From assembly GCF_003334785.1 (NCBI RefSeq), contig NZ_QOWV01000001.1: 64,000 bases of DNA; one strand, 5' to 3'. The stretch's first letter is position 1. Each line of letters begins with the position of its first letter. This DNA is from Escherichia coli. GTDB lineage: Bacteria; Pseudomonadota; Gammaproteobacteria; Enterobacterales; Enterobacteriaceae. Shown here piece after piece: positions 9,470-24,603 of this stretch. The notes beneath the pieces are model-generated. The model worked only from the letters and a program-made list of their open reading frames with translations. It was not told where the DNA came from and did no database searches. A program made the translations under genes and the position numbers.

Positions 9470-10783
<1,314 letters not shown>

Positions 10784-10803
10784 TACCCAATTTTTCTGAA
10801 TCT

Positions 10804-10830
10804 AAAAAGCGCCTGCGGGCGCTTTTTTTG
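10804..10830 (+). terminator. Intrinsic terminator of serS
   Basis: agcgcc-tgcg-ggcgct hairpin followed by TTTTTTT, 21 bp after the serS stop. Confidence 0.85.
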
Positions 10831-10837
10831 TCTCCCT

Positions 10838-10851
10838 TTGATACCGAACAA
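10838..10851 (+). promoter_or_regulatory. FNR box candidate for dmsA promoter
   Basis: TTGAT-accg-AACAA matches FNR consensus TTGAT-N4-ATCAA with one mismatch; dmsABC is an FNR-activated anaerobic operon. About 170 bp upstream of dmsA ATG, implying a long leader. Confidence 0.55.
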
Positions 10852-11021
10852 TAATTACTCCTCACTTACACGTAATACTACTTTCGAGTGAAAATCTACC
10901 TATCTCTTTGATTTTCAAATTATTCGATGTATACAAGCCTATATAGCGAACTGCTATAGAAATAATTACACAATACGGTTTGTTACTGGAATCAATCGTG
11001 AGCAAGCTTGAGTGAGCCATT

Positions 11022-13466
11022 ATGAAAACGAAAATCCCTGATGCGGTATTGGCTGCTGAGGTGAGTCGCCGTGGTTTGGTAAAAACGACAGCGATCGGCG
11101 GCCTGGCAATGGCCAGCAGCGCATTAACATTACCTTTTAGTCGGATTGCGCACGCTGTCGATAGCGCCATTCCAACAAAATCAGACGAAAAGGTTATCTG
11201 GAGCGCCTGTACAGTTAACTGTGGTAGTCGCTGCCCGCTACGTATGCACGTCGTGGACGGTGAAATCAAATATGTCGAAACGGACAATACCGGCGATGAC
11301 AATTACGACGGCCTGCACCAGGTTCGCGCCTGCCTGCGTGGGCGTTCCATGCGTCGCCGTGTCTACAATCCGGACCGCCTGAAATATCCGATGAAACGAG
11401 TCGGGGCGCGCGGTGAAGGCAAATTCGAGCGCATTAGCTGGGAAGAAGCCTACGACATCATCGCGACCAATATGCAGCGCCTGATCAAAGAGTACGGCAA
11501 CGAGTCTATCTATCTGAACTATGGCACCGGTACGCTGGGCGGCACCATGACCCGCTCCTGGCCGCCGGGAAATACCCTGGTCGCGCGGCTGATGAACTGC
11601 TGCGGCGGCTATCTGAACCATTACGGCGACTACTCCTCCGCGCAAATTGCGGAAGGTTTGAACTATACCTACGGCGGCTGGGCAGATGGCAACAGCCCGT
11701 CGGATATCGAAAACAGTAAGCTGGTAGTGCTGTTTGGTAATAACCCTGGCGAAACGCGAATGAGTGGCGGTGGGGTGACTTACTATCTTGAACAGGCACG
11801 CCAGAAATCTAATGCCCGCATGATCATCATCGATCCGCGCTATACCGACACCGGTGCCGGGCGCGAAGATGAGTGGATCCCTATTCGTCCGGGAACAGAT
11901 GCCGCACTGGTTAACGGTCTGGCGTACGTCATGATCACTGAAAACCTGGTGGATCAGGCATTCCTCGATAAATATTGCGTTGGCTACGATGAGAAAACCC
12001 TGCCAGCCAGTGCGCCGAAAAATGGCCACTATAAAGCTTATATTCTGGGTGAAGGGCCAGATGGCGTGGCTAAAACGCCGGAATGGGCCTCGCAAATCAC
12101 TGGTGTTCCGGCAGACAAAATCATCAAATTGGCTCGTGAAATCGGTAGTACCAAACCGGCGTTTATCAGCCAGGGATGGGGCCCGCAGCGTCACGCTAAC
12201 GGTGAAATCGCAACCCGTGCTATCTCGATGCTGGCGATTCTGACCGGTAACGTTGGTATTAACGGAGGCAACAGCGGCGCGCGTGAAGGTTCATACAGCT
12301 TACCGTTTGTCCGTATGCCGACCTTGGAAAACCCGATCCAGACCAGCATTTCGATGTTTATGTGGACCGATGCCATTGAACGTGGCCCGGAAATGACGGC
12401 GCTGCGTGATGGTGTACGCGGGAAAGATAAGCTGGATGTGCCGATCAAAATGATCTGGAACTATGCCGGTAACTGCCTGATTAACCAGCATTCTGAAATC
12501 AACCGTACCCATGAAATCCTTCAGGATGATAAGAAGTGCGAGCTGATTGTGGTTATCGACTGCCACATGACCTCATCGGCGAAATATGCTGACATCCTGC
12601 TGCCTGACTGCACCGCTTCCGAACAGATGGACTTTGCGCTGGATGCATCCTGCGGGAATATGTCTTACGTGATTTTCAACGATCAGGTGATTAAACCGCG
12701 CTTTGAATGTAAGACCATCTATGAAATGACCAGCGAACTGGCAAAACGTCTTGGCGTTGAGCAACAGTTTACTGAAGGCCGTACCCAGGAAGAGTGGATG
12801 CGGCATCTGTATGCCCAGTCGCGGGAAGCGATTCCTGAACTGCCAACGTTTGAAGAGTTCCGCAAGCAGGGGATCTTTAAAAAGCGCGACCCACAAGGGC
12901 ATCACGTTGCTTATAAAGCCTTCCGTGAAGATCCGCAGGCAAACCCACTGACTACGCCATCGGGCAAAATTGAGATTTATTCGCAGGCGCTGGCTGACAT
13001 TGCCGCTACCTGGGAATTGCCTGAAGGCGATGTGATCGATCCACTGCCGATCTACACGCCGGGCTTTGAAAGTTATCAGGATCCGCTGAACAAACAGTAT
13101 CCGCTGCAGCTTACAGGTTTCCACTATAAATCTCGCGTTCACTCAACTTACGGCAACGTTGATGTGCTGAAAGCGGCTTGCCGTCAGGAAATGTGGATCA
13201 ACCCGCTTGATGCCCAAAAACGCGGTATCCACAACGGCGATAAAGTCAGGATCTTTAACGATCGTGGTGAGGTTCATATTGAGGCGAAAGTGACGCCACG
13301 AATGATGCCGGGTGTGGTCGCACTGGGTGAAGGTGCCTGGTATGACCCGGATGCAAAACGTGTCGATAAGGGTGGTTGTATTAACGTACTGACCACTCAA
13401 CGTCCGTCTCCTCTCGCTAAGGGGAATCCGTCACATACAAACCTTGTTCAGGTTGAAAAGGTGTAA
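11022..13466 (+). CDS. dmsA: DMSO reductase catalytic subunit A (molybdopterin)
   Basis: 814 aa; twin-arginine signal (SRRGLVKTTAIGGLAMASSALTLPFSRIAHA); N-terminal Cys cluster CTVNCGSRCP. Confidence 0.96.
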   Translation: MKTKIPDAVLAAEVSRRGLVKTTAIGGLAMASSALTLPFSRIAHAVDSAIPTKSDEKVIWSACTVNCGSRCPLRMHVVDGEIKYVETDNTGDDNYDGLHQVRACLRGRSMRRRVYNPDRLKYPMKRVGARGEGKFERISWEEAYDIIATNMQRLIKEYGNESIYLNYGTGTLGGTMTRSWPPGNTLVARLMNCCGGYLNHYGDYSSAQIAEGLNYTYGGWADGNSPSDIENSKLVVLFGNNPGETRMSGGGVTYYLEQARQKSNARMIIIDPRYTDTGAGREDEWIPIRPGTDAALVNGLAYVMITENLVDQAFLDKYCVGYDEKTLPASAPKNGHYKAYILGEGPDGVAKTPEWASQITGVPADKIIKLAREIGSTKPAFISQGWGPQRHANGEIATRAISMLAILTGNVGINGGNSGAREGSYSLPFVRMPTLENPIQTSISMFMWTDAIERGPEMTALRDGVRGKDKLDVPIKMIWNYAGNCLINQHSEINRTHEILQDDKKCELIVVIDCHMTSSAKYADILLPDCTASEQMDFALDASCGNMSYVIFNDQVIKPRFECKTIYEMTSELAKRLGVEQQFTEGRTQEEWMRHLYAQSREAIPELPTFEEFRKQGIFKKRDPQGHHVAYKAFREDPQANPLTTPSGKIEIYSQALADIAATWELPEGDVIDPLPIYTPGFESYQDPLNKQYPLQLTGFHYKSRVHSTYGNVDVLKAACRQEMWINPLDAQKRGIHNGDKVRIFNDRGEVHIEAKVTPRMMPGVVALGEGAWYDPDAKRVDKGGCINVLTTQRPSPLAKGNPSHTNLVQVEKV

Positions 13467-15933: not shown

Positions 15934-17082
15934 ATGTCCACGTATACCCAGCCTGTCATGCTTTTGCTGTCTGGCCTGCTTTTGTTGACTCTGGCGATTG
16001 CGGTGTTAAATACACTCGTGCCGCTTTGGCTCGCCCAGGAACACATGTCCACATGGCAGGTAGGCGTTGTCAGCTCATCCTATTTTACCGGCAACCTTGT
16101 CGGTACATTGCTGACAGGGTATGTCATTAAGCGCATTGGCTTTAACCGCAGCTATTATCTGGCCTCCTTCATTTTTGCCGCTGGCTGTGCCGGCCTTGGC
16201 CTGATGATTGGATTCTGGAGCTGGTTGGCTTGGCGTTTTGTCGCGGGCGTCGGCTGTGCCATGATTTGGGTGGTTGTTGAGAGCGCGCTGATGTGCAGTG
16301 GGACGTCACGTAACCGTGGGCGTTTGCTTGCTGCGTATATGATGGTTTATTACGTGGGAACGTTTTTAGGCCAGTTACTGGTCAGCAAAGTTTCAACCGA
16401 GCTGATGTCCGTATTGCCGTGGGTTACAGGTTTGACGTTGGCAGGGATCTTACCGCTGTTGTTTACGCGTGTGCTGAATCAGCAGGCTGAAAACCATGAT
16501 TCGACGTCAATTACGTCAATGCTAAAACTCCGTCAGGCGCGGCTTGGCGTGAATGGCTGCATTATCTCAGGAATCGTTCTGGGATCTCTATATGGCCTGA
16601 TGCCGCTGTACCTCAATCACAAAGGGGTGAGCAATGCCAGCATTGGTTTCTGGATGGCGGTACTGGTCAGTGCGGGTATCCTTGGACAATGGCCGATTGG
16701 ACGTCTGGCGGATAAGTTTGGTCGACTGCTGGTGTTGCGTGTTCAGGTCTTTGTCGTCATTCTCGGCAGTATCGCGATGCTTAGCCAGGCGGCGATGGCC
16801 CCAGCGTTATTCATCCTCGGTGCCGCTGGCTTTACGCTATATCCGGTGGCGATGGCATGGGCTTGCGAGAAAGTTGAACATCATCAACTGGTGGCGATGA
16901 ACCAGGCCTTACTGTTGAGCTATACTGTGGGAAGTCTGCTTGGCCCGTCATTTACCGCTATGCTAATGCAGAATTTCTCCGATAATTTATTGTTTATCAT
17001 GATCGCCAGCGTATCGTTTATCTATTTGCTGATGCTGCTGCGCAACGCCGGTCATACGCCGAAACCCGTTGCTCACGTGTAA
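15934..17082 (+). CDS. ycaD: MFS transporter YcaD
   Basis: 382 aa, about 12 predicted hydrophobic segments, typical MFS organisation. Confidence 0.92.
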
Positions 17083-19730: not shown

Positions 19731-20321
19731 ATGCAGTCTGAACGTATTTATTTGGTATGGGCCCATCCTCGTCATGATTCATTGACCGCACATATTGCTG
19801 ATGCGATCCATCAGCGGGCAATGGAGCGGAAAATACAGGTGACGGAACTCGATTTATATCGGCGTAATTTCAACCCAGTGATGACGCCGGAAGATGAACC
19901 AGACTGGAAGAATATGGATAAACGTTATTCTCCAGAGGTTCATCAGCTTTATTCAGAGCTGCTTGAACATGACACGTTAGTGGTGGTTTTTCCTCTCTGG
20001 TGGTACAGCTTCCCGGCAATGCTAAAAGGATATATTGACAGAGTATGGAATAATGGGCTGGCTTATGGAGATGGGCACAAATTACCATTCAATAAAGTTC
20101 GTTGGGTGGCGCTGGTTGGAGGAGACAAAGAATCATTTGTCCAGATGGGCTGGGAAAAAAATATAAGCGATTATTTAAAAAATATGTGCAGTTATCTTGG
20201 TATTGAAGATGCCGATGTCACTTTCTTGTGTAATACAGTGGTATTCGATGGGGAAGAACTTCACGCGAGCTATTATCAGTCGTTATTATCTCAGGTACGG
20301 GATATGGTAGATGCACTATAA
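19731..20321 (+). CDS. ycaK: Flavodoxin-like NAD(P)H dehydrogenase (quinone)-family protein YcaK
   Basis: 196 aa MQSERIYLVWAHPRHDSLTAHIADAI...; flavodoxin_2-like fold. Confidence 0.9.
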   Translation: MQSERIYLVWAHPRHDSLTAHIADAIHQRAMERKIQVTELDLYRRNFNPVMTPEDEPDWKNMDKRYSPEVHQLYSELLEHDTLVVVFPLWWYSFPAMLKGYIDRVWNNGLAYGDGHKLPFNKVRWVALVGGDKESFVQMGWEKNISDYLKNMCSYLGIEDADVTFLCNTVVFDGEELHASYYQSLLSQVRDMVDAL

Positions 20322-24589: not shown

Positions 24590-24603
24590 TTGATATAGAT
24601 CAT
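24590..24603. promoter_or_regulatory. FNR box candidate in focA-pflB promoter region
   Basis: TTGAT-atag-ATCAT, one mismatch to TTGAT-N4-ATCAA, 61 bp upstream of the focA start in a very AT-rich 400-bp regulatory region. Confidence 0.6.

Follow-up and report, generated by a model that had tools for sequence, protein, structure and literature searches.

The serS terminator and the FNR-activated dmsA promoter of Escherichia coli: a known layout conserved across enteric bacteria

The P1 promoter of Escherichia coli dmsABC is described as a class II promoter that is activated by FNR, repressed by NarL and dependent on ModE, and it serves as a standard model of its class. Myers et al. (2013; PMC3688515) chose dmsABC to illustrate direct activation by FNR, placing the site at -41.5 and assigning the operon to 'Category 1 direct activation', and in the data of Federowicz et al. 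(2014; PMC3974632) dmsABC has an Fnr-bound region, 939,760-940,277, with the labels 'Activation' and 'Known'. A requirement for ModE in the regulation of dmsABC is stated in the title of McNicholas et al. (1998), and NarL protection has been described as spanning both the FNR and the RNA polymerase sites of the dmsA promoter. The DNA analysed here carries this same locus, with the same sequence, the same FNR site, the same -41.5 position and the same ChIP occupancy, and we found no difference from the known P1; an FNR-regulated dmsA promoter beside the serS terminator is already textbook knowledge. Our sole addition is a survey of 77 loci, which reveals a fixed spacing between the FNR box and the -10 hexamer and a gap of 7-11 nt between terminator and box, and for the promoter itself the consequences go little beyond confirmation.

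The window, by which we mean the whole 64-kb stretch of DNA that was analysed, is E. coli K-12-like, with serS followed by dmsABC. The 401 bases around the feature recur with 100% identity in many complete E. coli genomes, where they lie between annotated serS and dmsA; in MG1655 the gene order is rarA, serS, dmsA, dmsB, dmsC, ycaC, and coordinates in that genome (NC_000913.3) equal the window coordinate plus 929,937. The GC content of the intergenic region is 36.6%, compared with 50.9% for the whole window. The features considered below are as follows, in window coordinates.

9491-10783, plus strand: serS coding sequence (serine-tRNA ligase), the upstream gene, ending with its stop codon; from the open reading frame list and the RefSeq annotation of identical E. 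coli DNA
10797-10931, minus strand: full-length covariance-model match to Rfam RF02084 'STnc130', a predicted Salmonella sRNA
10804-10829, plus strand: serS intrinsic terminator, a hairpin with stem arms 10804-10813 and 10818-10827 around the loop TGCG (10814-10817), and a T run at 10823-10829
10806-10825, no strand assigned: 20-bp attachment core of a P2-family (Peduoviridae) prophage, from split queries and the attL and attR sequences
10830-10837, plus strand: spacer GTCTCCCT, 8 nt, from the T run to the FNR box
10838-10851, plus strand: FNR binding site TTGATaccgAACAA, centre 10844.5 (-41.5 from the predicted start), from motif, conservation and published ChIP
10856-10903, plus strand: NarL-type heptamers TACTCCT (10856-62), TACTACT (10876-82, a relaxed match) and TACCTAT (10897-903)
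10874-10879, plus strand: -10 hexamer AATACT of dmsA P1, conserved as NATACT, with TAATACT nearly invariant in the alignment
10886, plus strand: predicted transcription start (G), from the -10 position and the published -41.5 position of the site
10886-11021, plus strand: predicted dmsA 5' leader, 136 nt long with 34.6% GC, in which no RNA structure is significant or conserved
10908-10920, plus strand: second TTGAT motif TTGATTTTCAAAT, in an inverted repeat confined to Escherichia
10925-10948, no strand assigned: putative ModE-type operator palindrome CGATGTATA-caagcc-TATATAGCG, conserved across genera, centre about +51 from the predicted start
10998-11016, plus strand: pre-start block GTGAGCAA...GAGTGAG (ribosome-binding region), from the 25-genus alignment
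11022-13466, plus strand: dmsA coding sequence (DMSO reductase subunit A, with Tat signal peptide), from the open reading frame list and RefSeq annotation

Species-representative genomes were scanned with the N-terminus of DmsA as query, resulting in 80 loci, in nearly all of which serS lies directly upstream of dmsA, and in 77 usable intergenic regions from the Enterobacteriaceae. Five conserved blocks were evident in an alignment of 25 genera: the hairpin with its T run, the FNR half-sites, the -10 hexamer, the palindrome at 10925-10948 and the block preceding the ATG at 10998-11016. Read as TTGATACCGAACAA at 10838-10851, the box has one mismatch to TTGAT-N4-ATCAA (9/10 specified positions), and its half-sites TTGA and CAA are invariant across the 25 genera. 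NATACT starts exactly 36 nt from the start of the box in 73 of the 77 loci, an offset from which +1 falls at 10886 and the centre of the FNR site at -41.5, the geometry of a class II promoter. The distance from box to ATG ranges from 125 to 259 nt among the loci and leader length is therefore not conserved, so that the spacing between box and -10 hexamer is fixed while the leader drifts in length.

Published occupancy data place FNR and RNA polymerase at the same position. The supplement of Myers et al. (2013; PMC3688515) gives FNR peaks at 939,992 and 940,035, and for sigma70 a peak at 940,050 with a value of 30.8 under aerobic and 447.5 under anaerobic conditions. Under our own conversion from U00096.2 (coordinate minus 929,160), by which the sigma70 peak of serS in that study precedes its ATG by about 50 bp, these correspond to window positions 10832 and 10875 for FNR and 10890 for sigma70; they bracket the box centre at 10844.5 and the predicted start, and the FNR and anaerobic sigma70 peaks lie within about 30 bp of the box. 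The Fnr-bound region of Federowicz et al. (2014) covers the box. A sequence-only reading of this DNA had taken the box starting at 10838 for the FNR site of the dmsA promoter, with the dmsA ATG about 170 bp further on, and had named FNR ChIP-seq as a check and a lack of FNR occupancy as the result that would speak against it. The start position agrees with the sequence and the ATG lies 171 nt past the end of the box, while the assignment to the dmsA promoter is in line with the published -41.5 position and with two ChIP datasets that place FNR here. The bare motif occurs in the 64 kb at chance frequency (three sites against 2.4 expected with at most one mismatch, and 35 against 33 with at most two), and the meaning of the box must for that reason come from its context; its significance derives from its position, its conservation over 77 loci and the published ChIP data.

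Given these results, we consider it very probable (roughly 0.93) that the box and the -10 hexamer constitute the class II FNR-activated P1 promoter of dmsA, located 8 bp past the serS terminator, with sites for NarL, ModE and an sRNA explaining the conserved parts of the leader. Under anaerobiosis, an FNR dimer would bind TTGATaccgAACAA, overlapping the -35 region, and would recruit sigma70 RNA polymerase to the AATACT hexamer; transcription would then begin at about 10886 and produce the 136-nt leader. The start at 10886 is a prediction from this geometry together with the -41.5 position of Myers et al. (2013) and, at ChIP resolution, the sigma70 peak. The NarL-type heptamers are spaced about 20 bp apart and overlap the core promoter, and in a pattern search the strict form TACYYMT matched twice within 238 bp, compared with 0.5 matches per kb over the whole window. 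Individually they are candidate NarL sites, and their placement around the core promoter would give nitrate repression. A search of the serS-dmsA intergenic region with the IHF consensus WATCAANNNNTTR returned 0 matches.

The element upstream of the box resembles the Rho-independent terminators of enterobacterial housekeeping genes in its G+C stem, its tetraloop, its U7 tract and its distance from the stop codon. The hairpin, AAAAAGCGCC-TGCG-GGCGCTTTTT (10804-10827), forms together with its T7 a canonical intrinsic terminator 20 nt past the serS stop, and its stem consists of a 5-bp G+C core lengthened by A-U pairs around a 4-nt loop. The RNA folds at -16.3 kcal/mol (z = -3.8), and none of 200 shuffled sequences was equally stable. 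All 77 Enterobacteriaceae loci carry AAGCGCC-N4(5)-GGCGC followed by 6-9 T, with T7 in 63 of them; the stem is invariant in 25/25 aligned sequences and the loop is variable. RNAalifold applied to the intergenic alignment recovered the terminator as the only conserved structure, with nine pairs and no compensatory changes. What sets it apart from housekeeping terminators is that the stem keeps exactly the same sequence throughout about 25 genera, free of compensatory changes, whereas loop and flanks vary, and that the hairpin is flanked by an A run, which makes it terminator-like on the opposite strand as well. A simple terminator scan of the region did not report the hairpin; this is probably a limitation of the tool, as the stem, lengthened by A-T pairs, takes in a portion of the T run, and the null result was set aside because folding and conservation clearly show a terminator. 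In the 3'-end tables of Adams 2021, which hold aerobic data, the serS ends among the entries listed are internal only, with none at the hairpin. The terminator would end serS transcription and would thereby stop constitutive serS transcription from entering an oxygen-regulated promoter, a role in insulation that we infer from the arrangement. Across these approximately 25 genera the fixed stem and T run enclose a 4-nt loop with about 20 different sequences, and the third-codon positions of serS, like the hairpin flanks, vary around the invariant stem.

The adjacency of terminator and box, the central claim of the sequence-only reading, is present in the sequence, apart from a correction of one base: the T tract had been placed as ending at 10830, which is a G, and the run ends at 10829. 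The two elements had also been said to abut immediately, and here the adjacency stands but contact does not, as 8 bp separate them. The conservation that had been proposed as a check is likewise seen, with hairpin, box and -10 geometry kept across the Enterobacteriaceae loci. In 75 of the 77 loci the box, searched as TTGA-N7-CAA, starts 7-11 nt past the T run, and in two Cedecea-like loci it starts 39 nt past it. The layout is thus real and conserved across enteric bacteria, and it is ordinary known biology. The two exceptions are Cedecea neteri and Enterobacter sp. Cy-643 (loci L080 and L081), where the intergenic region measures about 345 bp; they represent a natural case of a promoter set apart from the terminator, and our regular expression gave no -10 hexamer match there.

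A closer coupling of the two elements, compatible with the roles described above, can also be envisaged, in which the terminator doubles as a part of the promoter. FNR activating region 1 contacts the C-terminal domain of the RNA polymerase alpha subunit, and at class II promoters this domain contacts A/T-rich DNA just upstream of the activator. The T7 (-63 to -57) could be that contact DNA, with the close spacing maintained by selection, and the invariant terminator as a whole (stem plus T7, -82 to -57) would then be a dual-use element whose T run is the docking DNA for the alpha C-terminal domain. If true, this would explain both the invariance of the stem across about 25 genera and the spacing of 7-11 nt. 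It is consistent with the 6-9 T present in all 77 loci, ending 7-11 nt before the box in 75, with a stem and T run that stay invariant while serS third-codon positions and the loop vary freely, and with the title of Lamberg & Kiley (2000), according to which the dmsA promoter needs FNR activating region 1. However, termination already demands an invariant T run, the gap varies by 4 nt, and terminators routinely adjoin promoters in compact intergenic regions; in addition, the 39-nt gap in the two Cedecea-like loci implies that the promoter works without abutment. We therefore regard both selection on the spacing and a docking function of the T run as unlikely, and an ordinary terminator followed by the class II promoter P1 as the better account.

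The hairpin has a further role as a site of prophage integration. Attachment sites of P2-family phages are found at conserved hairpins and gene 3' ends, and the site described here shares with them a duplicated 20-bp core and an integrase gene adjoining attR, differing in that the core is the serS terminator hairpin and not a tRNA gene. The query sequence falls into two pieces in 353 of 5426 complete E. coli genomes (about 6%), and these pieces overlap on the hairpin. Strain Ecol_867 carries a P2-family prophage of about 38 kb between serS and dmsA, with genes for an integrase, Cox, Ogr and P2-type capsid and tail. Its attL reads ...AAAGCGCCTGCGGGCGCTTT/aagtag and its attR ...acgtt/AAAGCGCCTGCGGGCGCTTTttttgtctccctTTGAT..., which defines the core as window positions 10806-10825; the same short core is thus present at both ends of an integrase-carrying prophage. 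In the type strain of E. albertii the junction is the same, and so is the integrase, at 99.7% identity; besides the window, the observation of this site covers positions 19917-20030 of locus L082, 1650-1700 of L083 and 1640-1830 of L005. A search for the attP of a free phage in viral contigs and phage records returned only prophage-type records that include the host dmsA. As the terminator hairpin is the attachment core, lysogeny alters the T run after serS: attL retains only TTT past the serS hairpin, and the full T7 stands beside the FNR box at attR. The P2-like prophages consequently rebuild the same upstream promoter context at attR and shorten the T run on the serS side.

On the opposite strand, the match to RF02084 reaches 140.1 bits against a gathering score of 55 (E 3e-25), far above the threshold and over the full length of the model. 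Taken at face value, 10931-10797 would encode the sRNA STnc130 on the minus strand, running antisense to the promoter of dmsA and the first part of its leader and ending at the hairpin as a bidirectional terminator. The minus strand does have UUUUU past the hairpin, and its fold has a z score of -2.7, which comes mostly from the hairpin. The record of this candidate argues otherwise: the supplement of Sittka 2008 places STnc130 (serS/dmsA) in class V, as a computational candidate for which each of the two libraries gave 0 cDNA reads and the Northern blot showed 'no detectable transcript', and a later paper still refers to it only as a 'putative sRNA'. No promoter-like site was detected on the minus strand in 10600-11200. 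The invariant alignment columns within the range of the match all belong to the terminator, the FNR box or the -10 hexamer, and the RF02084 model contains almost no structure beyond the terminator. An sRNA gene is improbable here; most likely the match is not a real RNA gene, and the family models the serS terminator and the dmsA promoter DNA, that is, content conserved for the opposite strand.

The leader was where the sequence-only reading had looked for further regulation. Its claim of a long leader with an AT-rich segment agrees with the 136 nt predicted from the conserved -10 hexamer and with a GC content well below that of the window. Moco riboswitches occur upstream of some molybdoenzyme operons, and a leader of this length on such an operon, in which TTGAT recurs at 10908 within an 8-bp inverted repeat, could in principle be a structured cis-regulatory RNA or hold a second FNR site. 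Folding of the leader, which the same reading had suggested, gave a z score of -1.29, not unusually stable, and RNAalifold on the intergenic alignment found no conserved pairs in it. A plus-strand Rfam search with permissive filters yielded no family at its gathering score and no Moco riboswitch, and the distance from box to ATG varies widely between genera. On these grounds a Moco riboswitch or other structured leader was rejected. The second TTGAT motif is indeed present at 10908-10912 on the plus strand, but the importance attached to it finds no support, as the motif departs from the FNR consensus at more than two positions and is conserved in Escherichia alone; as a second FNR site it was likewise rejected. 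Either version, a structured leader or a second FNR site, now appears highly improbable. A search for small ORFs in the leader found only non-conserved ones that lie on the minus strand or overlap, none of them credible. The inverted repeat that includes the second TTGAT is a perfect one, TGAAAATC at 10889-10896 and GATTTTCA at 10910-10917 (leader +4 to +32), and is found in Escherichia only.

In the explanation that we favor, P1 as a class II FNR promoter with an unstructured leader, the leader would be long because it carries regulatory sites acting at the DNA and RNA levels, those of NarL, ModE and an sRNA, and not because it folds into a riboswitch. The palindrome at 10925-10948 is of the same 24-bp type as the ModE operators of modABC and moaABCDE: relative to CGnTATATA-N6-TATATAnCG it has one substitution at dmsA, compared with two at modA and one at moaA, and within the window it is the only match with at most four substitutions. 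It is probably the ModE operator of dmsABC, at about +51, and as such would provide molybdate control. The dmsA site differs from the modABC and moaABCDE operators in lying within the transcribed leader, some 51 nt past the predicted start. This is an odd position for an activator that is reported to be necessary for expression.

The last conserved block lies in the ribosome-binding region. In Salmonella, pairing of the sRNA AdiZ with dmsA has been validated by the compensatory mutations G-22C and C46G (PMC12746102), and the E. coli block at 10998-11016 is, as judged from sequence comparison, homologous to the AdiZ pairing site in the Salmonella dmsA 5'UTR. It would accordingly be an RNA-level site for an sRNA, AdiZ, as in Salmonella. 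In loci of the Leclercia and Kosakonia type the pre-start block reads TTGTGAGCAATCAA, an FNR-like palindrome with two mismatches.

The notion that the box is a chance match and that the intergenic region has the true dmsA promoter at another position, for which the chance-level frequency of the motif and another sigma70-like match overlapping the box (TTGTCT-16-AATAAT, 10828-10855) might be cited, can be given next to no weight, being contradicted by two independent ChIP datasets, by the published -41.5 assignment and by a box-to--10 geometry fixed across 73 loci, and the overlapping match was rejected as a promoter, since shuffled sequences predict one such match and its -35 hexamer TTGTCT is not conserved. 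Elsewhere in the window, TTGATATAGATCAT at 24590-24603 has one mismatch to the FNR consensus and lies, by coordinate conversion, about 9 bp from the focA-pflB FNR peak of Myers et al. (2013) at 953,741 (U00096.2); it is probably a known focA/pfl FNR site. Another FNR-like motif with one mismatch, TTGAACATCATCAA, is located at 16874-16887.
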